A DNA stretch of 22,144 bases from a virus (IMGVR_UViG_3300046055_000032:1-22144); one strand, 5' to 3'. Shown: positions 2,809 through 16,571, counted from the first letter of the stretch. Translations and numbers: made by a program. Notes: generated by a model from the sequence alone, not told the origin.

Positions 2809-3576
2809 ATGACGGACGCAACGATCGTCGGCAACGCCGGGCACATCCGGCAGCAAATCGAACGTTTGAGCCTTCCGTACCAGGGTGACGTCCTCTTCAA
2901 CCCGCTGAAGTTGGACATCCGCGAGAACGGCGTGTATTGCGCCGTGCAGAGCCCACGGAAGACGAGCTTCCTGAAAGCGAAAGTGGATCTCGGCAAGGCC
3001 GACGGCGACGATGACGTCGTCCTCGACAGCCAGGACCTCCTCACGTTCCTCGGCAACTATGACCGAGACGAGCAGGTCCGCATCACGGTCGGGGACACCG
3101 TCACCATCGACGGCGAACGGCGCTCCAGCACCATTTACCCGCAGAACCTGGAACCGAGAGCCCCCGCCTCCCTGCCCCAGTTCGAGGACGGGATCGTACA
3201 GTACCGCGTCGGCGAGGACGAGTACGCGCCGGCGCAAGCCGTTGCCGAGGTCGCCTCCGAGCATCTCGCCGAGCTGGTGGATGACGCGAAAACCATTGAC
3301 GTGGCAAGTTTCCCGTTGCGCTTCGGGCCGCGGGAGAGCACGGCCAGTCTCGGCAGCTTGAAACCGAAGCACAACCAGATCGACGTACTACTTGACGCGG
3401 ACGTCGAGGGCGAGCACGCCGAAACCGTCATCGGCGAGGACTTCATTCACCTCTTCAACAACATCCGTGGCGAGGTGGAAGTCCAGCTCCGCGACAGCGC
3501 TCCGCTGGTCGTGGTGCACGAGCCCGCGGACAGCGATCGCATCGTGTACGTTCTCGCGCCGCGCAAGGACGCATAG
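2809..3576 (+). CDS. pcn: DNA polymerase sliding clamp (PCNA-like), 255 aa
   Basis: PCNA length; C-terminal APLVVVHE...IVYVLAPRK matches the PCNA P...Y-x-L-A-P-R end; RFC and PolB genes nearby. Confidence 0.8.
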   Translation: MTDATIVGNAGHIRQQIERLSLPYQGDVLFNPLKLDIRENGVYCAVQSPRKTSFLKAKVDLGKADGDDDVVLDSQDLLTFLGNYDRDEQVRITVGDTVTIDGERRSSTIYPQNLEPRAPASLPQFEDGIVQYRVGEDEYAPAQAVAEVASEHLAELVDDAKTIDVASFPLRFGPRESTASLGSLKPKHNQIDVLLDADVEGEHAETVIGEDFIHLFNNIRGEVEVQLRDSAPLVVVHEPADSDRIVYVLAPRKDA

Positions 3577-5000: not shown

Positions 5001-5629
5001 CGAACGAGCTGAACGTTGACATCCGCGAATCGCAACGCACGATCGACGCGCTCCGCGCGGAAGCCGGCGAGGAGTGGGACGTTAACGTCGCCATGTTCGA
5101 GGTCGCGGACGTCTTCTACACGAACCGCTTCGGCATCGAGCACAAGCGACCGAACGATTTCGCGAACAGCATCACGGACAACCGCATCTTCCAGCAAGCG
5201 GCAGAGTTGAACGAGAACTTCGCGCAACCGTTCATCCTCGTCAGCGGAACCCTCGACGACGCGATGCACGCTCGGCGCGGCTTGAGCCCCGAGAGCGTGA
5301 AAGGTGTCGTCGCCAGTCTTTGTACCCGTCGCGGTGTTCCCGTCCTCTTCGCCGAGAACGAGTTCGCGAGCCTCGTGTTGCGATTGGCGGCAAAAACCGT
5401 GAAGACGGGCCCGATCGAGTACAATCCTGTACGGAAAACCGGAAGCACTCAAGACAAGCGGTACGCTTTGTTAACCCAGTTACCGCAGGTAGGCGAAACG
5501 ATCGCGGAACGGATACTGGACGAATATCCCAACCCTCTAATAGCTCTAAATAATATCGGGGAATGGCCGGAAACGATTCACGGCATCGGTCCCACATCCA
5601 AGGACGAGATCATTGATGTCCTCGAATGA
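4997..5629 (+). CDS. ERCC4/XPF (Hef-like) structure-specific nuclease with C-terminal HhH motifs, 210 aa
   Basis: VDIRE; ADV...GIEHKRPNDFANSITDNRIFQQ (ERKx3D-type); HhH motifs LPQVGETIAERIL and IHGIGP. Confidence 0.85.
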   Translation: MTNELNVDIRESQRTIDALRAEAGEEWDVNVAMFEVADVFYTNRFGIEHKRPNDFANSITDNRIFQQAAELNENFAQPFILVSGTLDDAMHARRGLSPESVKGVVASLCTRRGVPVLFAENEFASLVLRLAAKTVKTGPIEYNPVRKTGSTQDKRYALLTQLPQVGETIAERILDEYPNPLIALNNIGEWPETIHGIGPTSKDEIIDVLE

Positions 5630-7067
5630 ACCACTCACGGAGAAGTACCGCCCGACGACCCTGGACGACGTTTTAGGGCAAGAACAAGCGACGCGCCGCA
5701 TGAAGGAGTACGTGTCGAACTATCACGACGGCGATCTACAGATGCCGCACCTTCTCCTCACCGGACCGCCGGGCGTCGGGAAGAGCAGCGCCGCGTTCGC
5801 GCTCGCGCACGAACTTTACGGGGACGGTTGGGAAGAGAGCGTCCTGGATCTCAACGCCAGCGACGATCGCGGCATCGATCTCATCCGCGGCCGTGTCAAG
5901 GAGTTCGCGCGCAGCGCTCCCGTCGGCGAGGAGTTCGATGTGATCGTGTTGGACGAGGCGGACCATTTGTGCTTGCCGTCGGGATCTCCTGTCGTGACAG
6001 GCATGAGGTCTGGTAGGACGGTGAAACCAATCGAGGAAGTATCTCCTGAGGGTGAAGTGATTCCGTCACTTGATACGGAGACAAAACAACTGAAAAAAGA
6101 TACTGGTAGGTTGGTCGATTCGGGGACGGCTGAATTTTACGAGGTGAACTTCAAAGATGGGAGAAGTGTAACTGCCAGCCCAGAGCATCCGTTCTTTGTA
6201 TTGACCGACGAGGGGGAAATCGTAGAGAAGGAGTTGAGAGAGTTGGGTCCTGGGGATGAGATCGTAGATTTACAAGATAGCGTTGGCCTTAAGAAGTGCG
6301 GGATATGCTCTGATTGGACAAGGAACTCAAGGTTTTGCAGTAAAGACTGCAAAAATGAAGGACATAGCCGCGAAGTCTCTGGGGAGGACAACCCCAGATA
6401 TGGAGAGGATGGTTGGAACAAAGGTCTGACGAAAGACGATGATCCGAGAGTTGCAGCGCAGACCAATCATGGCCCCGATAATGGTAACTGGAACGGCGAT
6501 TTTCATGGTAAGAGCTGGCATGAGTTTGACAACGAGGAGTTGAAAGAAGAGGTCAGGAGGAAGTTATCGAAATCCCGCTCCGGGAAAAGCTATGAAGAGA
6601 TATATGGATCTGAGGAAAGCGCCAGAAAAGAACGCAGAAAAAGAGCGCCGGGGGAAGGTGAAACCGGGAACCTTGGGTCCAGATACCATCTGAAAGACAA
6701 AGACGAGGCTGTGTGTGAAGTTTGTGAGTCAATGTTCCCCGCGTCTGGGATCGATGGCATTTACGTTCACCACATTGATGGGGATCAAAGTAATAACGAA
6801 CCGAGTAACTTGATGAATGTATGCCCAGATTGCCACAATAATGTTTGCCACAACATAGCTGAGAGAACGTCAAATCATTGGGAGAAAATGTCAGAAGATG
6901 AGAAACGTATGAGGGTTGAAAAGATGAGCGAGGGGGTCTCAAAGAAGTGGGATGAGTGGAAAGAAGAGCTACCGGTTTGTGGTGCAGATTGTAAGACAGG
7001 TGGTACTTGTTCAAACCCTGTTAAGGATGATGATGAACAATGTTACATACACAAAGGTGATTCATAA
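5616..7067 (+). CDS. rfcS: RFC small subunit N-terminal half fused to intein N-fragment and HNH endonuclease
   Basis: EKYRPTTLDDVLGQ, GPPGVGKS, LNASDDRGID, VLDEADHL, then CLPSGSPV (intein block A, codon 5970), TASPEHPFFV (block B), HNH VHHIDGDQSNNEPSNLMNVCPDCHN; TAA at 7065-7067. TTG 5613 is an alternative start. Confidence 0.9.
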   Translation: MSSNEPLTEKYRPTTLDDVLGQEQATRRMKEYVSNYHDGDLQMPHLLLTGPPGVGKSSAAFALAHELYGDGWEESVLDLNASDDRGIDLIRGRVKEFARSAPVGEEFDVIVLDEADHLCLPSGSPVVTGMRSGRTVKPIEEVSPEGEVIPSLDTETKQLKKDTGRLVDSGTAEFYEVNFKDGRSVTASPEHPFFVLTDEGEIVEKELRELGPGDEIVDLQDSVGLKKCGICSDWTRNSRFCSKDCKNEGHSREVSGEDNPRYGEDGWNKGLTKDDDPRVAAQTNHGPDNGNWNGDFHGKSWHEFDNEELKEEVRRKLSKSRSGKSYEEIYGSEESARKERRKRAPGEGETGNLGSRYHLKDKDEAVCEVCESMFPASGIDGIYVHHIDGDQSNNEPSNLMNVCPDCHNNVCHNIAERTSNHWEKMSEDEKRMRVEKMSEGVSKKWDEWKEELPVCGADCKTGGTCSNPVKDDDEQCYIHKGDS

Positions 7068-7204
7068 TGCCGGCTGCCAAGAAGAGGGAGATTAACACAG
7101 TAGAAATAGATTCGATAGAGAGTAAGGGCCAAGGCAAGGCTTGGAACATTACCATGGATAAGCGTCCTAACTTCCTGCTTGGCAATGGAATCCTCACGCA
7201 TAAC
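5970..7204 (+). mobile_element. Split intein with HNH homing endonuclease (IntN+HNH 5970-7064; IntC 7067-7204)
   Basis: Inserted at DEADHL|TNQAQAALRRTME. GC in sampled 60-nt lines: 28/60 (6481-6540) and 23/60 (7021-7080) versus 44/60 in the extein (5761-5820). IntC ends NFLLGNGILTHN followed by Thr+1. Confidence 0.85.
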
Positions 7205-7804
7205 ACAAACCAGGCACAGGCGGCGCTGCGCCGCACGATGGAGGATTATCCCTCGTCGCGTTTCATCCTCATCGGTAATTACCCGAACCGTATCATTCGA
7301 CCGATCCGTGACCGTTGCACGACGTTCCCCTTCACGCCCGTTGATCAAGAACGGGGTGTTTCGGCCTTGGCTCGCATCTGCGAGCGCGAGGGGATGGACA
7401 CTGACCGGGCCGCGCTGGAGGCGTTGTGGGAGCAAAACCGCGGTAGTATGCGTGGAGCCCTCAACGCTCTCCAGTCGTTTCCGCCGTCGTTCAGCGCCGA
7501 CGACGTTCAGCGCCATGCACCGTCGCAGGCGGCGAAGGACATCATGCAAGCCCTGGCGCAAGGCGAGACCCGGGACGCCGAGCAGCGGCTCTTGCAGCTC
7601 ATTCGCAGCGGCGTCAGCAGCGACGAAGTGTTCCGTTCATTGTTTGACGTGATCGATGACAGCTCGATGAACGAGGAGGCGAAGGACAACGTCTTGTTCC
7701 GGCTCGGCGAGTACGAGTACCGGGTCCAGACGGGATGCAGCCTCGACGTGCAAGCCCGGTGCTTCCTCCGGGAGATGAACAGTTTGCGGAGGAACGGTCC
7801 ATGA
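7067..7804 (+). CDS. rfcS: Intein C-fragment (46 aa) fused to RFC small subunit C-terminal half
   Basis: MPAAKK...VEIDSIE...AWNITM...GILTHN|TNQAQAALRRTMEDYP..RFILIGNYPNRIIRPIRDRC; own SD GGTGA (7056-7060) and TAATG overlap with the upstream stop. Confidence 0.9.
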   Translation: MPAAKKREINTVEIDSIESKGQGKAWNITMDKRPNFLLGNGILTHNTNQAQAALRRTMEDYPSSRFILIGNYPNRIIRPIRDRCTTFPFTPVDQERGVSALARICEREGMDTDRAALEALWEQNRGSMRGALNALQSFPPSFSADDVQRHAPSQAAKDIMQALAQGETRDAEQRLLQLIRSGVSSDEVFRSLFDVIDDSSMNEEAKDNVLFRLGEYEYRVQTGCSLDVQARCFLREMNSLRRNGP

Positions 7805-8875: not shown

Positions 8876-11800
8876 ATGGTTACGTTCAAACCGTACAGTA
8901 TCTATTACGAGACGGAGCGCGACGACCTGGTCGTGCACCTGCACGGCCGCACCGCCGATGGGGAACGTCGAAGCGTGAAACTGTACGGTACGCAACCGTA
9001 TTGTTACGGGACGATCGTCCCGAGCCATGACCTCGTCACGGGCGTTGAACGCGACGCTGCCGAAACGTTGCAAGGTGAGAGCGTTCACCGCATCGAGACG
9101 GCGTTCCCGTTCAACGTTCCGAAGATCCGTGACGAGTGCGGTGACACGCACGAAGACGACGTCTGGTTCAGTGATCGCGTCCGTTACGATCACGGCATCA
9201 GGGGCGCCGTCGAGATCCCGGATCGCGACATGTTGAACCCGGGGGAGATCACGCCCATCAGTTACGACGAGCGCCCCGGGATTGACGCGCGCGTCTGTGT
9301 TTTCGACATCGAAGTGGGCAGCAAGCAAGGCTTCCACGGCCCCGACAACCCTGGCGGGGAAGTGCTCAGTATCGCCGCCTGGGACAGTTACCATGACTCG
9401 TACGTGTTCCTGCTGAACGGCCAGTTCGACCCCGCGTCGCAGCGGAAAGCGATGCGGTACTTCAAAAACGAGGACTGGAACGTCCAAATCGTTGAATGCA
9501 GCAACGAGCGCTCGCTGTACCAACGCTTCTGTCAATTCTTGATCGCGGCGCAGCCGGACGTTTTGGCTGGGTGGAACAGTTCCGATACGATGGGCAGCAA
9601 CGGCACGGACGGGTACGACGTACCGTACTTGAAAGCGCGCGCCGAGCTGGTCGGACACCCGCAACCCGATTGGGACCAATACGTCGCGTTCGACCTCATG
9701 GACGCGTACGCTCGAATGCAATTCACCGCGCTGGAAAGCAAAGGCCTGGATTTCGTGAGTCAAAAGGAAGGGCTTGAGGGGAAAACCAGCGACGAGAGCG
9801 TTTGGAAGCTCTACGAGCAGGATCGCGGCAACTTCGCGATCTACAACGTCGCGGACGTCTTCCTCACGAAAGAAGTCATGCAGCGCGCGAACGTTCTCGG
9901 GTTCTGGGAAGAGTTGAGCGACTTCGCTGGCTGCGGACTTCAAGATGCTCTCGCGGCGGGGCGTGTCGTGGATGCGTTCGTGTTCCATTGGTTGCGCGGC
10001 GACGATCGCGTTTTGCCGTCGCGTGGCGGGGGCGAGTCCCTGGATCTCGGCGGGGGCGAGGTTCTCGATCCCAGCGACGGCCTGTTCCGGCACGTGGTCG
10101 AGATCGATCTCTCGTCACAGTACCCGAACGCGATGCGGACGTTCAACTTGAGCCCGGATACGCTCGTGGACGAGGACTTTGACGGTCCCGTGTTCACGAT
10201 GCCGAGCGGTGCCCGTTATCGGAAAGACCAGCGCGGCATTATTCCGCACATCATCGACGAGCTGATTAGCCTTCGCGAGGCGAAACGCTCGCAAGGCAAA
10301 GAGTTAGAGCAGCGCGTTATCAAGGAGGTAGCGAACTCGATCTATGGAAACATAGGTTCGCCCTACAGCCGATTCCGTAACGAGTACATCAGTAACGACA
10401 TCACGGCCAGCAGCCGCGAACTCATCAGCTGGATCGCCAACCAAACAGCCGAACGAGGCGATCGTCCACTGTATGGGGACAGCATCACCAGGGATCGGTT
10501 CGTTACTGTCCGGGACCCCGACGGCAACGTGTACCCCATCAACATCGAAGAGTTCTTCGAGAGCGTGGCGGAACAAACCGGTGCCGCTTGCGAGTTCTTC
10601 CAGCCTGACAACGTCACTCGCCGAGCCGATGGGAAGGAGGAAACGTATCCCGAAGAGTGGGAGGCCCTTACTGTAAACCCCGAAACAGGCGAACCGTGCT
10701 GGCGCCCGGTCCGTTGCATCATCCGTCACGAAACGGACAAGACGATCTACCAGGCCCGGCAAAAGCACGGCATCACTCGATGTACCGAAGACCACTCCCT
10801 CATCGATCAAGACTACGAAGAAGTTCGCCCCGAAGAGTTAGAGGGTCGAGAGATGGCGTATGTTCGGGAACTTCCCCAGGAAGAGTTGAACTCTTCCGTT
10901 GACTTGGCCGATTGGTTATCGTTCGAGGATGTGATGATTGACGAGACCCCCAACATCGGGCAGCGCACTATTTACTGGGACGCAGCACAACGGTGCGGGG
11001 AGGTGGACCGACGCCTCGACGGCAAGCAGCTTGAGAACTTTTGCCGTCTCTTGGGAGCGTACGTGTCAGATGGGAGCGCTGGGACAAGCATCACTCGCGA
11101 CACTCGACGGGGTAGTTGGGGCATCTCGAACCAGAACAATGAATGGCTGGAGGAGATGCAAGAATACGCTCAGTCCGTGTTCCGGGGCGTCAAGCACTCG
11201 ATACTGGACGACATGGAGGGCAGCGGAACGTACAAGATGACGTCAGGGACGCGCCTCCCCGCCACCATCATGACTGTGCTGGCTGGCGCGGGCGCTCGTG
11301 GCAAGAGAGTGCCACGATTCTTGTTCGGGCTTGAGGATCGCTTCAAGTGGGCGTTTCTGGAGGAGGCAATACAAGGCGATGGCTGGTGGAAGGAGGGGGG
11401 CGAGTCGCCGGACGTTGAACAGCATCGTTTCTCGTACTGTTCCACGAGCCAAGAACTCATCTCGGGCCTCTCGCTGTTACTGAACTGCCTGGGCATCGAT
11501 CACGGGGTCAAGTACCGTCCTGAGAAAGAGAGCTACGCTCTGTACCGGCGCGAGCAGGTTCGGGAGACCCGTCTACAAACAACCGTATCGACCATGAAGT
11601 ACGATGGCCCCGTCTTCGACGTGGAGGTCGAGGGAACAAACATGTTCTGCGACTCCCTGGGGCACGTACTTCTCCACAACACGGACTCCGTCTTCTTCTT
11701 GTTCGCGGACGCTCCCGACGATTACCGTGGCGTGCAACGCATGGCGGAGGAGCGTGTCACGGAGCTGAATGACCAACTCGGCGAGTTCGCGGAACGTTAC

Positions 11801-12445
11801 GGATGGGAAGACGGCGACGAGCTGCATCTGGAACTGGACGTAGAGCACGTTTACGAAGCCTGGTACCAGCCGGGCGCCAAGAAAACGTACGTGGCCGTGT
11901 ACCGTGACCCGGACGGCAACATCGAGCGGGACGGGTACCGGTACTCGATGAAAGCCCGCGGTTTCGATCTCCGGTTCAGTAACACGGCCAACCTCACGAA
12001 AACCTTACAAAGGGAGGTGCTCGTCGCGCTCCTGTTCGGTGCCGGCCAAGACGACATCATCGACCATATCCGCGGAACGATCGACGAGCTGAAAGCCGGC
12101 AACATCTCGCACGAAGAGCTGCTCGTCCCGACCGGGTGGAACAAGAGCGAGTACAAGACCGAGCCCGAGCATGTACGCGCCGCGCGGTGGAGCAACGAGA
12201 ACCTCGGCAAGAATTTCGGTCCCGGGGACAAACCGCTCGTCCTGCCAGCGCACGTCGAGGACAAGCCACCGACGGACGTGATCGCGCTCGCGTGGGGTGA
12301 CGATCTCCCGGAGGGTACTGTCATCGACTGGGACGAAGTCGTTCGTAAAGCCATCTTGCAACCGATGGATAACGTTCTGGAACCGATCGGTATCCGGCAA
12401 CGGGACATCCTTCGTCCCACGGCCGAGGCAGACAGCTTCTTCTGA
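8876..12445 (+). CDS. polB: Family B DNA polymerase with 3'-5' exonuclease; contains an intein (1189 aa precursor, about 789 aa mature)
   Basis: ExoI FDIEV, ExoII GWN...YDVPYL, ExoIII YNVAD, motif A DLSSQYP, motif B KEVANSIYG, motif C YGD|TDS split by the intein. Confidence 0.95.
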   Translation: MVTFKPYSIYYETERDDLVVHLHGRTADGERRSVKLYGTQPYCYGTIVPSHDLVTGVERDAAETLQGESVHRIETAFPFNVPKIRDECGDTHEDDVWFSDRVRYDHGIRGAVEIPDRDMLNPGEITPISYDERPGIDARVCVFDIEVGSKQGFHGPDNPGGEVLSIAAWDSYHDSYVFLLNGQFDPASQRKAMRYFKNEDWNVQIVECSNERSLYQRFCQFLIAAQPDVLAGWNSSDTMGSNGTDGYDVPYLKARAELVGHPQPDWDQYVAFDLMDAYARMQFTALESKGLDFVSQKEGLEGKTSDESVWKLYEQDRGNFAIYNVADVFLTKEVMQRANVLGFWEELSDFAGCGLQDALAAGRVVDAFVFHWLRGDDRVLPSRGGGESLDLGGGEVLDPSDGLFRHVVEIDLSSQYPNAMRTFNLSPDTLVDEDFDGPVFTMPSGARYRKDQRGIIPHIIDELISLREAKRSQGKELEQRVIKEVANSIYGNIGSPYSRFRNEYISNDITASSRELISWIANQTAERGDRPLYGDSITRDRFVTVRDPDGNVYPINIEEFFESVAEQTGAACEFFQPDNVTRRADGKEETYPEEWEALTVNPETGEPCWRPVRCIIRHETDKTIYQARQKHGITRCTEDHSLIDQDYEEVRPEELEGREMAYVRELPQEELNSSVDLADWLSFEDVMIDETPNIGQRTIYWDAAQRCGEVDRRLDGKQLENFCRLLGAYVSDGSAGTSITRDTRRGSWGISNQNNEWLEEMQEYAQSVFRGVKHSILDDMEGSGTYKMTSGTRLPATIMTVLAGAGARGKRVPRFLFGLEDRFKWAFLEEAIQGDGWWKEGGESPDVEQHRFSYCSTSQELISGLSLLLNCLGIDHGVKYRPEKESYALYRREQVRETRLQTTVSTMKYDGPVFDVEVEGTNMFCDSLGHVLLHNTDSVFFLFADAPDDYRGVQRMAEERVTELNDQLGEFAERYGWEDGDELHLELDVEHVYEAWYQPGAKKTYVAVYRDPDGNIERDGYRYSMKARGFDLRFSNTANLTKTLQREVLVALLFGAGQDDIIDHIRGTIDELKAGNISHEELLVPTGWNKSEYKTEPEHVRAARWSNENLGKNFGPGDKPLVLPAHVEDKPPTDVIALAWGDDLPEGTVIDWDEVVRKAILQPMDNVLEPIGIRQRDILRPTAEADSFF
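10481..11680 (+). mobile_element. Contiguous intein (400 aa) with LAGLIDADG homing endonuclease in PolB motif C
   Basis: Starts with Ser after YGD; TRCTEDHSL (block B), LLGAYVSDGS and FLEEAIQGDG (DOD motifs), STSQELISGLSLLLNCLGI; ends VFDVEVEGTNMF...LLHN followed by Thr+1. Confidence 0.92.
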
Positions 12446-12458
12446 TACCGTCCCCGAA

Positions 12459-12483
12459 CCGAAACGCTTTCAAATCCTAAAGG
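12459..12483 (+). promoter_or_regulatory. Putative BRE/TATA promoter of the modification cassette (likely leaderless)
   Basis: CCGAAACGCTTTCAAATCCTAAAGG: TATA-like TTTCAAAT starts 28 nt before ATG 12496. Confidence 0.5.
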
Positions 12484-12495
12484 GTTTTTTGCAGC

Positions 12496-12996
12496 ATGAA
12501 TCCCGAGAAGGCTACGTGCCGCTCGTGCGGGTCCACGTTCAACGTCACGTACGACGTCTGGGACGGCCGCCCGCGCGGCGTAGCTGACTTCATGAGCCCG
12601 AAACTGTCACCCGGTACCGAGAACGCGATCCGAACGATCGCGGCCTTGAACGAGTACGAGATGGTGGGTGTCGTGAGTATCGTGGACTGTGACGGCGTCG
12701 GTTACTTGACGGGCCTCAAAGTGGCGAGAACGGTCCGCAACGAGGGCATCGGGACGCGCCTGACGCGCCGCTGCTGCGAGGAGGGCGAGAAGCTCGGTTG
12801 GGATCGCATCTACTTGGACACGGTCACGGACAAGGCCGCATCCGTGTTCATCGGAGTCGGTGCCACGACGGTTACCTATGACGAGATGCTGGGCGCTGTC
12901 GAGGACCACTTGGGTGACGCTGTCCGAGGTTATCGGGCATCGGATCGCGATTACGAATGCTGGGTGATCGAGTTGAGTGATAACGATGACGAGTAA
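12496..12996 (+). CDS. GNAT-family acetyltransferase with N-terminal CxxC knuckle, 166 aa
   Basis: YLTGLKVARTVRNEGIGTRL = GNAT acetyl-CoA-binding motif A; WDRIYLDT; N-terminal CRSCG. Confidence 0.8.
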   Translation: MNPEKATCRSCGSTFNVTYDVWDGRPRGVADFMSPKLSPGTENAIRTIAALNEYEMVGVVSIVDCDGVGYLTGLKVARTVRNEGIGTRLTRRCCEEGEKLGWDRIYLDTVTDKAASVFIGVGATTVTYDEMLGAVEDHLGDAVRGYRASDRDYECWVIELSDNDDE

Positions 12997-14167
12997 CGAA
13001 CAAGACGAGAACCCGGACTGGGCTCGCGGTTACCCTGTTGAGGAACTGGAGCGCATCGCGGACATTTGCCAAGAGCACGATCACGAGTACAGTCTCAGCG
13101 TGTTCTCGAAAGTCCAGGAGCGCGACGTAGCGACCTGGATGGACGAGTACCAGGTGATCGCCGCCGACGACTGGTGCATCGTGTACGAAGACGTGGATCG
13201 CTCGCGCCGCATCCAGGACTTCCGCCGCGAGCCGCGCGGCAAGATGCAACGGTACGATCGCTTCGTTCGGCGCGTCGCGTGGCGAGACGACGACTCTTCC
13301 GATGCGTACAGTGCGGTCCGTGAGACACTGGGTGCTCTCCTGGACGACGTCACGGGATGGGTTCGTCTCTGGCAAGGCCATCCCGGCGATGAGCGTCTCG
13401 CGGACGACCTGGGCCTCGATCACGGGCTGACGAAGATCTCGGCCGCGAGCGAGCTGGAAGGCATTTGGGTCACGGACGACGAGATCGTTCACATCGATGA
13501 TCTCCTACCCGAGGAGGCGCTGCACTTGGAGCGAGCCAGTACAAGCATCGACCCGGACGCGTTCCAAGCAGCGCGGGACGCCCTGGATCGCATCGAGGAA
13601 TGGACGGGCCACTACTCCAAGTACGGGGACCCGGACACGTGGAGCGCGCTCGCGCTGCGCGGTTTCGGCGGCAAGACGGGGTTCATTGACAAGCCCGCGG
13701 AACGGAACCAGTCGTGGCGTGAGGACAACCCTGACAAACTGAACTGGGAATGCCAAGATACGCCGCTTCGGGACGAGCTGCCGGAACTGGACCCGCTCAT
13801 CGATGCCGTCCCGGGTCGCAAGGAGCGCATCCGGCTCATGCGTCTCGGTCCCGACGACGGGGAAATCGAACGTCACGCGGACATCACGGACCCGGACGCC
13901 GGCGCCGCGCTCGGCAACTTGATGCGAATGCACGTCCCGCTGCAAACGAACATCGGCGTCGCGTTCACGAGCTGGAACCGTTTCGGGAACCCGAAAACGA
14001 CGCACATGGGCGCGGGCGAGATCTGGTACTTGGACACTCGAAAACCGCATCGCGTCATCAACGAAGGCAGCACGGATCGCGTTCATCTCGTCCTCGACGT
14101 GGAAAGCAACGAACAGTTGCTCGACACGCTGGGCGTTGAGAAACAAACAGTGGGAGAGTTCTTTTGA
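12986..14167 (+). CDS. Two-domain protein: unassigned (possibly GNAT-like) N-domain + Asp/Asn beta-hydroxylase-like 2OG-Fe(II) oxygenase, 393 aa
   Basis: RIRLMRL...IERHAD (HxD), MRMHVPL, GEIWYLDTRKPHRVINEGSTDRVHLVLD (distal His and 2OG-binding Arg); ends KQTVGEFF. Confidence 0.8.
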   Translation: MTSNEQDENPDWARGYPVEELERIADICQEHDHEYSLSVFSKVQERDVATWMDEYQVIAADDWCIVYEDVDRSRRIQDFRREPRGKMQRYDRFVRRVAWRDDDSSDAYSAVRETLGALLDDVTGWVRLWQGHPGDERLADDLGLDHGLTKISAASELEGIWVTDDEIVHIDDLLPEEALHLERASTSIDPDAFQAARDALDRIEEWTGHYSKYGDPDTWSALALRGFGGKTGFIDKPAERNQSWREDNPDKLNWECQDTPLRDELPELDPLIDAVPGRKERIRLMRLGPDDGEIERHADITDPDAGAALGNLMRMHVPLQTNIGVAFTSWNRFGNPKTTHMGAGEIWYLDTRKPHRVINEGSTDRVHLVLDVESNEQLLDTLGVEKQTVGEFF

Positions 14168-14464
14168 TGAGCGATATGAAAGTGGACGATTGTCGCATCC
14201 TGCACGGAGACGCTCTCGACCGGCTTGGGGACGTGGATGACAATAGCGTGCATACGTGCGTGACCAGTCCCCCGTACTGGGGTTTGCGCGAGCGGCCGCA
14301 AACCATTCCCCCGTTCGCGGCGGTGCAAGCGGGGAAGTGCGCAGCGAAACGTTACACGTCGAAAGTGCACGAATACTGCCTCGTCTTCCGCAAGGGGGGG
14401 GGGCGTCCGTGAGGGAGAGATGGAGCCCGTCAGTCGCACCGATAACGCGGAGGATTTCTTTTGA
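14167..14464 (+). pseudogene. Internally deleted, frameshifted amino-methyltransferase relic
   Basis: ILHGDA...VHTCVTSPPYWGLR joined directly to KRYTSKVHEYCLVFRK; no AdoMet-binding motif I; TGA at 14410-14412 just after a G10 run (14394-14403). One G fewer would extend the frame to ...NAEDFF-stop at 14464. Confidence 0.7.
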
Positions 14465-15378
14465 CTCGCCAAAACTCGCTCGTTGACCAGTACGTGGAGC
14501 CGCCGTTCAGTACGCTGAACACTCAATCGCAGCGCTGGCAGGAGCGCAAGAACTGGTGGATCAACCTCGGCATCCAGAGCCACCTCGGTCGCGGGGACAA
14601 CCTGCTTGGTTTCAGCGAGACCGTTCTCGGTGAGAGCGGCGAACTGGACGGGACGAGCATCTTTGACCCCGTGCTGTGCGAGCTGATGTACCGGTGGTAC
14701 TCGCCAGACGACGGGACCGTACTTGACCCGTTCGCGGGCGGTAGCGTTCGCGGGGTCGTGGCTGCGTGCCTCGGCCGAGACTATGTCGGCATTGACGTGA
14801 ACGAGAAGCAGGTCGAGCACAACCGGCAACAATGGAACGAGATCCGCCACGTTAACGACTGGGGCGGCGAGCCGCGTTGGATCGCGGGCGACAGCAAGTA
14901 CGTGCTCCCCACGCTCGACGACGATGCTGATTTCCTGTTCTCGTGCCCGCCCTATTACGCGCTGGAACAGTACACGGACCGGGGCGACGATCTCAGCAAC
15001 GCGCCAAGTTACGACGACTTCGCGAGCGACATGCGCGACATCATCCAGCAAAGTTATGACCAGTTAGCGCCGAACAGTTTCGCTGTATGGGTCGTCGGCG
15101 AGATCCGCGACGACGACGGGTCCTATCACGGTTTCGTTCCCGACACGATCGAATGGTTCCGAGACGCTGGGTTCCGGTACGAGAACGAACTCGTACTGGA
15201 AACCAGTCTCGCGACCGCCGGAATGCGCGCACGGCGCCAGTTCGACGCGAGTCGGCGCGTCGTGAAAACGCACCAGAACGTTCTCGTGTTCTGCAAGGGG
15301 GACGCGAAAACGGCCACGGACCAGCTCGGGGACGTGCAAGCGCAGCCCGGGGACGAGAACGCACAGGAGTTCTTCTAA
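14461..15378 (+). CDS. DNA amino-methyltransferase (N6-A or N4-C), 305 aa
   Basis: Motif I VLDPFAGG precedes motif IV FSCPPY; N-terminal PPFSTL...W...K..W; C-terminal KTHQNVLVFCKG; TTG start with SD GGAGG (14449-14453); ends NAQEFF. Confidence 0.85.
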   Translation: MTRQNSLVDQYVEPPFSTLNTQSQRWQERKNWWINLGIQSHLGRGDNLLGFSETVLGESGELDGTSIFDPVLCELMYRWYSPDDGTVLDPFAGGSVRGVVAACLGRDYVGIDVNEKQVEHNRQQWNEIRHVNDWGGEPRWIAGDSKYVLPTLDDDADFLFSCPPYYALEQYTDRGDDLSNAPSYDDFASDMRDIIQQSYDQLAPNSFAVWVVGEIRDDDGSYHGFVPDTIEWFRDAGFRYENELVLETSLATAGMRARRQFDASRRVVKTHQNVLVFCKGDAKTATDQLGDVQAQPGDENAQEFF

Positions 15379-16328
15379 TGACGCTGCAAGCGGAGTTGTG
15401 TCCGGAGACGTTAACGGAGTACGGGAACACGGAAGAGGCGAGCGTTGGCCGGAACTTTATCGAAAGCTGGCAGCGCGGGCACCCGCTCGCGGACGCTCTC
15501 CTCCTCCACGGACCACCGGGCGTGGGTAAAACGACGCTCGTGCGTTGCCTTGCGCGCAGTTACGGGTTAGAGATGGTGGATTGGGACGCGAGCAGTGACG
15601 TTGACCGCGACACGATCCCCGTCATGTACCGTGCCGCGCTGAGCGCGTCCTGGAACGGGGACCCGAAAATCGTTTTCGTTGACGAAGTCGAGCACATCAC
15701 CACCACGCAACAGCAACGGATCGCTGACATCATTGACGCGAGCCGGCATCCCGTCATCTTGGCGTGCAATCATTACGGGGACGTGCACGAGAGCGTCAAG
15801 GACGCGTGCATGACGATCGAGTTCGGTCCGCCAAAGACGCGAGCCCTGGAACGGTTGGCGAAACGCATCAACGATCGCGAAGCGTTACCGGGCGTTAGCG
15901 CGGAGGACGTTGCGGAGGCCCGATCCTTCCGGCAGCTCCTCGGCGCCGCGTGTGGCGGCTCAGTCGGCGTCGCGCGTGCCGATGACTTCGATGCGCGCAT
16001 CCGTCAACTCCTCCGCGGCGAGGACGTCGATCTGCGGCCCAGCGAGTACTGGTTAGCGAAGGCGTGGCTGCTCGACAACAGTAACGGGACGCCCGCCGGC
16101 GAGTACGATCGATGGTTGGCACGGTACCGTGACGTCGGGTCGTCGATGGAGAAGTACATCAAGCGGGCCGTCCGGCAAGTACAGCGCCGGTGCCGGCAAC
16201 CTCGTTTCCCGTGGAGCGTGACGATCCAGGGTAAGAGCGACGACGAGGAGGACGGGGAGCGTGACGCGGACGACGAGGGGGACGAGGACGAGGAGGGCGC
16301 GAGCGGGATCGCTGCGTCGTTCTTCTGA
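15378..16328 (+). CDS. rfcL: RFC large-subunit-like AAA+ clamp loader, 316 aa
   Basis: LLLHGPPGVGKTT, WDASSD, IVFVDEVE, PVILACN; acidic tail ending IAASFF; TAATG coupling to the methyltransferase stop. Confidence 0.75.
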   Translation: MTLQAELCPETLTEYGNTEEASVGRNFIESWQRGHPLADALLLHGPPGVGKTTLVRCLARSYGLEMVDWDASSDVDRDTIPVMYRAALSASWNGDPKIVFVDEVEHITTTQQQRIADIIDASRHPVILACNHYGDVHESVKDACMTIEFGPPKTRALERLAKRINDREALPGVSAEDVAEARSFRQLLGAACGGSVGVARADDFDARIRQLLRGEDVDLRPSEYWLAKAWLLDNSNGTPAGEYDRWLARYRDVGSSMEKYIKRAVRQVQRRCRQPRFPWSVTIQGKSDDEEDGERDADDEGDEDEEGASGIAASFF

Positions 16329-16571
16329 CACGCTGGACAGAAGCGAAAAAGGGATAAAGGAGAGAGCCTGTTCCTTATCCCCGAGAGGGCAACTTTCGGC
16401 AGATGGTTCCGCCCTGGGCATGGCGTAAAACTGCCCCACCCCTCTGTACGGAGGACGACGTATGCGAGACGAAACCCGAGCCTGCCTGATGCTGCAAGGA
16501 CGTGCATCCATACCCCTCCTGACGCGTCATGCGCTCGGGCGTCAAACCGCCGCCTCCGTGGGGGTGCCGTG

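Follow-up and report, generated by a model that had tools for sequence, protein, structure and literature searches.

Shared C-terminal tails on replication and DNA-modification enzymes of a putative haloarchaeal tailed virus suggest docking onto a PCNA-type clamp

The gp45 sliding clamp of phages T4 and RB69 serves as a tool belt, to which the gp43 polymerase, gp33 and gp55 bind through a shared C-terminal hydrophobic epitope. In archaea, PCNA-interacting peptide (PIP) motifs lie mostly at the extreme C-terminus of clients such as the family-B DNA polymerase (PolB), the RFC large subunit, Fen1, NucS and NreA. Their consensus is Q-x-x-[LIM]-x-x-[FWY]-[FWYL], with KTTQSTLDSFFK as the A. fulgidus consensus peptide (PMC4929162, PMC3504372), and PCNA clients without the Gln exist, e.g. 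Dpo4 (PMC3504372). In eukaryotes, a PIP-type motif links DNMT1 to PCNA and couples maintenance methylation to replication (PMC1934996). M.EcoGIX and M.BceJIII are replication-associated methyltransferases specific for single strands, and their authors suspected some intermediary, for instance the sliding clamp (PMC7736820). The ParB-dependent T-dioxygenases of phages are DNA-modifying oxygenases aided by ParB (PMC13229309). Here we describe a viral genome in which five reading frames within 4 kb, all of them replication or modification genes, end in Phe-Phe (FF), and we propose that these tails dock the proteins onto a clamp. The stretch analyzed (IMGVR_UViG_3300046055_000032:1-22144), hereafter the window, covers 22,144 nt at the beginning of an IMG/VR virus record of 86,144 nt, whose completeness is estimated at 94%. 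The genome has a GC (guanine plus cytosine) content of 62%, an acidic proteome and head, tail and replication modules, which together indicate an uncultured tailed virus of haloarchaea. The + strand of the window holds the replication module, including SNF2 helicase, primase-like and PAPS-reductase-like proteins, and all window coordinates given below refer to this strand.

The tails were located exactly where an earlier note, made from the sequence of the window alone, had reported them. PolB (1189 aa, 8876-12445; Pfam DNA_pol_B, DNA_pol_B_exo1 and LAGLIDADG_3) ends in TAEADSFF (12419-12442). A two-domain 2-oxoglutarate (2OG)/Fe(II) oxygenase of family PF05118 (12986-14167, start at 12977 or 12986) ends in KQTVGEFF (14141-14164), and an N6/N4-type DNA methyltransferase (14461-15378) ends in DENAQEFF (15352-15375). 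The fourth tail, SGIAASFF (16302-16325), belongs to an RFC-large-like AAA+ clamp-loader subunit (316 aa, 15378-16328), while the fifth, TDNAEDFF, closes a frame that ends at 14464 behind a frameshift, in the relic of a further methyltransferase (14167-14464). The earlier note had also claimed that a small hydrophobic residue always occupies PIP position 4, and that no other open reading frame (ORF) called there ends in FF. Both statements hold: the five 8-mers carry A, V, A, A and A at this position, and a scan of all stop-to-stop frames of at least 30 aa in the six frames of the whole 86,144-nt genome found exactly 5 FF ends among 1600 frames. Given the Phe frequency of the proteome (0.031) and ~105 genes, only 0.1 FF ends are expected by chance, and the probability of four or more is 3.7e-6. 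Widening the pattern to an aromatic followed by a hydrophobic residue added one credible gene, a Dam-type methyltransferase fragment on the - strand outside the window (genome 71915-72256, NPPY.. motif). As this fragment ends in REVEAWF, a W-type end of the form hydrophobic-x-x-aromatic-aromatic, every DNA methyltransferase gene in the genome has, or once had, a PIP-like end.

Relatives of the locus keep the tails. In locus L018 (~95% identical) all four are retained, and TAEADSFF of PolB is unchanged. The syntenic 15.6-kb contig L013 is 59%, 67% and 54% identical to the window in oxygenase, methyltransferase and RFC-large, respectively, and 6 of its 15 genes end in FF: PolB (TEDVGGFF), oxygenase (KRTVGGFF), methyltransferase (DEDVGEFF), RFC-large (TDATSFF) and two DruA-family proteins (NVEAFF and EVDSFF). 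The DruA-family proteins (PF14236, Druantia) flank PolB in this contig (4063-4932 and 7439-8377), and no homologue of them was found in the window genome. In this FF clade, [V/A]-x-x-F-F-COOH occurs on seven unrelated protein families. A second clade uses another form, h-x-x-W-[ILVF]-COOH (h, hydrophobic), on PolB, RFC-large, oxygenase, methyltransferase, a 5-hydroxymethyldeoxyuridine (5-hmdU) DNA kinase and others. PolB of contigs L014 and L023 ends in EDWV and ADWI, and further W ends are found there on a 106-aa protein (EEWF), a 286/312-aa protein (DSWV) and an HNH gene (GEWL). In L015 and L022, the oxygenase ends in KLEAWI, the methyltransferase orthologue (39% identical to that of the window) in VDLWV, and the 5-hmdU DNA kinase (HMUDK, PF18723, Pfam E 2e-88) in TEEWL; ThyX, DUF3310 and glycosyltransferase genes are present near the oxygenase. 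In the third clade (L025; PCNA 40% identical), PolB (KNDEFF) and RFC-large (DDWF) are the sole proteins with aromatic ends, among 25 genes. Across RFC-large relatives the ends read ALFF, ATSFF and DDWF, with the W-type ETWI, ESWL, NEWV and GEWI in more distant homologues. Cellular RFC-large homologues end in QQRLDLF or QQRLDMF, which makes the viral tail a distinct variant. Two proteins, PolB and RFC-large, carry the tail in all clades; the end dipeptide varies by clade and is uniform within a genome, and the h-x-x-aromatic-hydrophobic spacing is maintained in ~20 of 23 tails. In two of the clades, the tail has spread to DNA-modification enzymes.

The match of these ends to an archaeal PIP box is partial. 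Position 1 holds T, K, T, D and S in the window and S, T, Q, K, D and G in L013, which departs from the canonical Gln. Position 4 is aliphatic, V or A, in 11 of 11 tails of the FF clade, smaller than the canonical L, I or M; it is V, L, I, M or T in the W clade and N or T in the third clade. Positions 7 and 8 carry the expected aromatic or hydrophobic residues, as FF (window, L013 and L018), W-[ILVF] (W clade) or FF and WF (third clade). The motif also sits at an exposed and flexible terminus. In the AlphaFold2 model of the oxygenase the last 12 residues are coil, along which the per-residue confidence (pLDDT) drops from ~97 to 42, with values below 50 at residues 390-393; such an exposed coil fits the expectation for a short linear motif. 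In RFC-large and in the methyltransferase, acidic or low-complexity linkers precede the tails, the one in RFC-large being acidic.

The tail is an add-on, since aromatic ends are rare among the homologues of both modification enzymes. In 120 oxygenase homologues the catalytic domain ends ~15 residues past a conserved HLV strand, and ~110 of them have no such aromatic end, as they stop directly behind that domain or finish in some other way; those that do are two of the FF clade, four of the WI clade and a few others. Similarly, an aromatic end is missing from 118 of the 120 top methyltransferase homologues, most of which are fusions with a ParB domain, and the two exceptions are FF-clade proteins. 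The tail is absent from 11 viral contigs whose methyltransferases are 42-53% identical to that of the window. Seven of these contigs come from records that were searched, and in none of the seven was a PCNA of the family described below present; four of the seven are at least 99% complete. A megablast of positions 12400-16400 against GenBank phages gave no match to cultured phages.

The putative receptor of the tails is a 255-aa protein encoded at 2809-3576. Searches of Pfam, PHROG and PDB sequences returned no match for it at E of 0.01 or better. An exhaustive HMMER search of a 1.8-billion-protein library found 28 homologues, nearly all of 245-265 aa, and the alignment built from these relatives (A1) was fed to AlphaFold2. 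The model (pLDDT 94.2, pTM 0.90) shows two beta-alpha-beta-beta-beta domains in a chain of about 250 aa. When compared with PDB by Foldseek, 50 of the 50 best matches were PCNA (E down to 1e-14, TM 0.67-0.78, ~15% identity), and human and archaeal PCNA lead the list (E 1e-14, TM 0.75-0.78). This match of the predicted structure points to a virus-encoded PCNA, so that the virus, as modeled, encodes its own, highly divergent clamp beside its own clamp-loader subunits. Members of this divergent PCNA family occur in each of the three clades with tails, together with a clamp loader of the viruses' own. In the W clade, the start of the PCNA gene overlaps the stop codon of the oxygenase gene (L015 11176-12327 and L022 11173-12318; hmmsearch E 1e-71). 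These W-clade proteins have a 125-aa N-terminal extension rich in Ala, Pro and Lys. Searches for related loci that started from the single PCNA sequence gave no viral contig, and those from RFC-large gave two distant contigs only; the relatives were gathered through exact-protein look-ups. A complex prediction of PCNA (alignment A1) with the last 35 residues of the oxygenase scored 0.01 against a mark of 0.32, but it was run without controls and is counted neither way.

The tails probably dock the replisome and modification enzymes onto a PCNA-type clamp. The earlier note had offered this interpretation, with an own PCNA at 2809-3576 as the receptor, and our results support it. The tail is conserved in close homologues (L018 and L013 both keep FF), contrary to the refuting condition named in the note that FF ends would not be kept there, it is missing from most homologues and from the seven methyltransferase-bearing virus records that have no PCNA of this family, the protein at 2809-3576 has a PCNA fold in its predicted structure, which no sequence search could show, and the tail changes clade by clade. 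As the tail form shifts by clade on the same set of proteins, and the W-clade PCNA gene adjoins the oxygenase gene, one common partner is suggested. The clamp suggests itself for this role, since a C-terminal PIP motif is classically carried in archaea by PolB and RFC-large. We read the tail, from its sequence, as best explained by a Gln-less, lineage-specific C-terminal peptide of the PIP type, which would have been extended from the replisome to DNA-modification enzymes. The viral clamp loader, encoded in the same module as the PCNA and made of the split RFC-small and the RFC-large-like subunit, would place PCNA rings on primed viral DNA. In the peptide [T/D/E]-x-x-[V/A]-x-x-F-F-COOH, the aliphatic residue at position 4 and the aromatic residues at 7 and 8 would insert in the hydrophobic pocket of PCNA. 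PolB and RFC-large may employ the tail as their cellular counterparts do, and the same tail would gather the oxygenase and the methyltransferase or methyltransferases (in relatives, also the DruA-like proteins and the 5-hmdU DNA kinase) on clamps at or behind the fork. Enzymes held in this way could modify nascent viral DNA at once.

Several observations weigh against clamp docking. The tails are without the Gln and have V or A in place of the canonical L, I or M. In the third clade, with N or T at position 4, the motif may shrink to acidic-x-aromatic-aromatic-COOH, which also occurs in hub-binding tails unrelated to clamps. Some genes of the module have no tail, namely those for the GNAT acetyltransferase (which ends in SDNDDE), RFC-small, the primase and the SNF2 helicase. 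For the closest solved relatives of the oxygenase, the substrates are free amino acids, intermediates of nucleoside antibiotics or proteins, and not DNA. Finally, the W-clade replication contigs (L014 and L023) and modification contigs (L015 and L022) are separate assemblies and may come from more than one virus.

A stronger form of clamp docking is more tentative, and we regard it as possible rather than probable. In haloarchaeal and related tailed viruses, the divergent PCNA, loaded by the viral RFC, would read a clade-specific peptide that host proteins lack. A whole hypermodification pathway (PF05118 oxygenase, N6/N4 methyltransferases, 5-hmdU DNA kinase and DruA-like proteins) would then assemble on the nascent DNA of the virus and not on that of the host, and the clamp would be a processivity factor and a self-marker at the same time. 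For the simpler proposal, the viral clamp is favored over the host clamp as the partner, a choice that we infer from the comparisons that follow.

Docking onto the host PCNA is unlikely, although it is the alternative that survives best. The viral enzymes would be placed on clamps loaded by the host, or would compete with host clients, and the viral PCNA would have another or an additional role. The tails do keep the hydrophobic core of the general archaeal PIP motif (PMC4929162), and no computed result here separates the viral from the host clamp. However, the same divergent PCNA family and an own clamp loader accompany the tail in all three clades, and a tail that changes clade by clade is more readily explained by co-evolution with a partner from the virus than with host PCNAs, which are conserved. 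The cellular homologues of RFC-large moreover have another end, QQRLDLF.

It is somewhat less likely still that the tails bind a different hub of the replisome and no clamp at all, in the way of T7 gp2.5/gp4 or of the tails of bacterial single-stranded DNA-binding protein (SSB). The hub might be the acidic 336-aa protein encoded at 915-1925, the primase or the SNF2 helicase. Acidic tails with aromatic ends would suit such a partner, as would the loss of the aliphatic position 4 in the third clade. On the other hand, the constant carriers are PolB and RFC-large, the classic bearers of C-terminal PIP motifs (PMC4929162), the h-x-x-aromatic-hydrophobic spacing is kept in nearly all tails, and the W-clade PCNA gene stands in operon position with the oxygenase gene. 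A role of the FF end as a stability or degradation signal (degron), timing the abundance of early proteins and not docking them, seems very improbable to us. C-terminal hydrophobic residues are degrons in many systems, and all carriers lie within one early gene block; yet the genes for GNAT, RFC-small, the primase and the PAPS-reductase-like protein in the same block have no FF end, and a degron leaves unexplained why the carriers are enzymes acting on DNA and why the spacing to V/A is conserved. The chance that the FF ends are a coincidence, or a T-rich terminator or translational-coupling signal that reads as Phe-Phe, is negligible: two ends read TTCTTTTGA and several stop codons overlap the next start codon, but the chance probability is ~4e-6, most ends are TTC TTC TGA without a run of four T, the FF codons vary synonymously among orthologues (TTC TTC vs TTC TTT), the W clade uses TGG and varied codons, and the residues before FF are also conserved, which places the signal at the protein level, so that neither an oligo-T terminator nor a coupling signal can account for FF.

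The two modification enzymes that carry the tail are supported by their families and their active-site motifs. The oxygenase exceeds the gathering score of PF05118, the Asp/Asn beta-hydroxylase family (40 bits, cut-off 22.6), and its metal triad H297-x-D299 plus H355 is invariant in 56 of 56 homologues. In its model (pLDDT 93.6), an alpha/beta domain at the N-terminus is followed by a double-stranded beta-helix at the C-terminus, and the latter matches 4p7w and 7v4f. The nearest solved folds are an L-proline cis-4-hydroxylase (24% identity), a nucleoside-antibiotic hydroxylase and AspH. The oxygenase gene recurrently adjoins, or is fused to, genes for N6/N4 methyltransferase-like proteins and pyridoxal-phosphate (PLP) enzymes (P0012, P0049, P0094, L013 and the P0023 contig), and in L022 it sits in a cluster of the thymidine-hypermodification type, a pathway described elsewhere (PMC5889632, PMC8989533). 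From this linkage we infer that the oxygenase works on DNA or on a base adduct, with a replisome protein as a possible alternative substrate. When the oxygenase was searched against phages by tblastn, the sole match was partial and lay in one mycobacteriophage. The methyltransferase matches Pfam N6_N4_Mtase (53.2 bits, cut-off 26.7) and PHROG 12517 and 498, and the PF01555 motifs I (DPFAGGS) and IV (CPPY) can be read directly. It is a short form of a ParB-methyltransferase family, without the ParB domain, and its homologues of 44-54% identity are ParB-domain fusions.

The relic upstream of the methyltransferase was read in all three frames. It starts with SPPY and is shifted at a run of ten G (14394-14403), where nine G would restore the reading to TDNAEDFF. 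The TGA behind this end overlaps the TTG with which the downstream methyltransferase begins. The earlier note had called it a methyltransferase relic behind a frameshift. The frameshift and the FF end stand, but its origin was corrected by comparison with L018, whose counterpart has a longer N-terminal part (110 aa) and, in another frame, the C-terminal end typical of the family (TEDVEDFF). It is a dead remnant of a separate beta-class N6/N4 methyltransferase, and this replaced its reading as a duplicated C-terminal half of the adjacent enzyme. The middle piece of the relic in the window could be chimeric. Whereas this middle differs from that of L018, the final 19 nt of the relic are the same in both, perhaps because they contain a coupling signal and the start of the downstream gene.

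The clamp-loader and polymerase genes have been subject to insertions. RFC-small is encoded by two ORFs (5613-7804), one at 5613-7067 and the other at 7067-7804, which overlap as TAATG. PHROG clamp-loader matches were found for residues 2-119 and for the second ORF, and an HNH endonuclease segment (matches at residues 332-445) lies between the halves. In this RFC-small/HNH region GC falls to 0.476 (6001-7000). The RFC-small orthologue is a single uninterrupted gene of 318 aa in L013 and contains a LAGLIDADG intein in L020. PolB of the window has a LAGLIDADG-type intein-like insert at ~11345-11551, absent from the L013 orthologue (805 aa). The best NCBIfam matches of the RFC-large-like subunit are the RFC large subunit equivalogs, with E 5e-25 but far below the curated cut-offs and over residues 8-170 only, and its 316 aa compare with ~500 aa for cellular RFC-large. 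In L018 (4873-5823) this gene is called as two ORFs of 56 and 251 aa, from a frameshift or an assembly error. In L014 an HNH_3 endonuclease gene (10936-11487) directly follows RFC-large, and its end RPKVADMGEWL mimics RSVSDVGEWI of RFC-large. It looks like a homing-endonuclease insertion with a duplicated 3' end of its target gene. A GNAT acetyltransferase (12496-12996; Pfam Acetyltransf_1, E 8e-9) lies within the modification block.

Other ends that resemble docking peptides were found in the window and among the homologues. The Sak4-like recombinase (1934-2806; PHROG 124, Pfam AAA_24) has a near-terminal PIP-like GKVLDFLGEN, which is GKVIDFVEEH in L013 and SRVFEFIGE in L019 and is not kept in L020 and L025; by this motif, the recombinase is a candidate further client of the clamp. 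Beside it, the very acidic 336-aa protein encoded at 915-1925, whose family is unassigned, ends in DINFSDFE, with VVDFEDF in L019 and VVDFSSFQ in L020. This [VI]-x-F-x-x-F end is conserved and is possibly a partner-binding tail like that of SSB. A few oxygenase homologues have ends like beta-clamp motifs (GQLF, GSLF and DLDLFGNPL), for which the neighboring genes in L024 give no support. Many ParB-methyltransferase homologues (P0190-P0307 and L002) show a recurrent [FWY]-G-E-x-L in or near the end (ELFGEPL, EDFGEPL, EWGERL, EFGEEL and SEYGEEL), and the oxygenase homologue P0023 ends in DLDLFGNPL. The motif [FWY]-G-E-x-L may be a second C-terminal docking motif in other phage lineages.

Modification that follows replication must outpace the restriction enzymes of the host. 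How viral modification enzymes target new viral DNA quickly and selectively is largely unexplained, beyond the eukaryotic case of DNMT1 and PCNA. If the proposed docking is true, archaeal viruses would have a general solution in a short and transferable tail by which methyltransferases, an oxygenase and a DNA kinase are brought to the clamp. Such a tail would also provide a simple sequence rule to spot enzymes acting on DNA among uncharacterized viral proteins. This rule points to the uncharacterized PF05118 oxygenase family and to DruA-like proteins as associated with DNA. An orthogonal pair of clamp and peptide, if real, would be usable as a tool.

Literature searches turned up no account in which DNA-modification enzymes of archaeal viruses carry clamp-docking tails. 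What appears to be new are the FF variant, the putative clients (oxygenase, DruA and kinase) and the possibility to compare both tail forms between orthologous proteins. Like archaeal PIP boxes, the tails lie at the extreme C-terminus past a flexible linker, with an aliphatic residue at position 4 and aromatic residues at 7 and 8, and occur on PolB and RFC-large. They differ from them in lacking Gln1 and in having V or A at position 4, and their putative receptor is a viral PCNA ~15% identical to the cellular ones. The list of putative clients also differs: an oxygenase, DNA methyltransferases and DruA-like proteins are added, and relatives contribute a 5-hmdU DNA kinase. M.EcoGIX and M.BceJIII are comparable with the proposed scheme as prokaryotic anti-restriction methyltransferases with an activity tied to DNA synthesis, but a docking motif has not been defined for them and no close homology is detectable; homology of the window methyltransferase to either was rejected after tblastn against plasmids gave no E. 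coli or Burkholderia match. The ParB-dependent T-dioxygenases and the ParB/N6_N4 methyltransferase fusions share with the proposed docking a longer residence on DNA through an encircling or sliding accessory module. That module is for them a ParB/CTPase domain or partner, whereas here the ParB domain is absent and a putative clamp-docking tail is present, and the window oxygenase is a member of PF05118 and not of the TET/JBP family. DNMT1 uses a motif of the PIP type to bring a DNA methyltransferase to newly replicated DNA, as the virus putatively does. Its motif is internal and canonical, whereas the N6/N4-type enzymes of the virus carry a terminal motif without the Gln, which a whole set of modification enzymes shares. 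The T4/RB69 gp45 system is similar in having a clamp and a loader encoded by the virus and unrelated viral proteins that share one C-terminal docking peptide, which in our case is putative. The non-replicative clients in T4 are transcription factors, while here they would be DNA-modifying enzymes, held by a clamp of the PCNA type in an archaeal virus.

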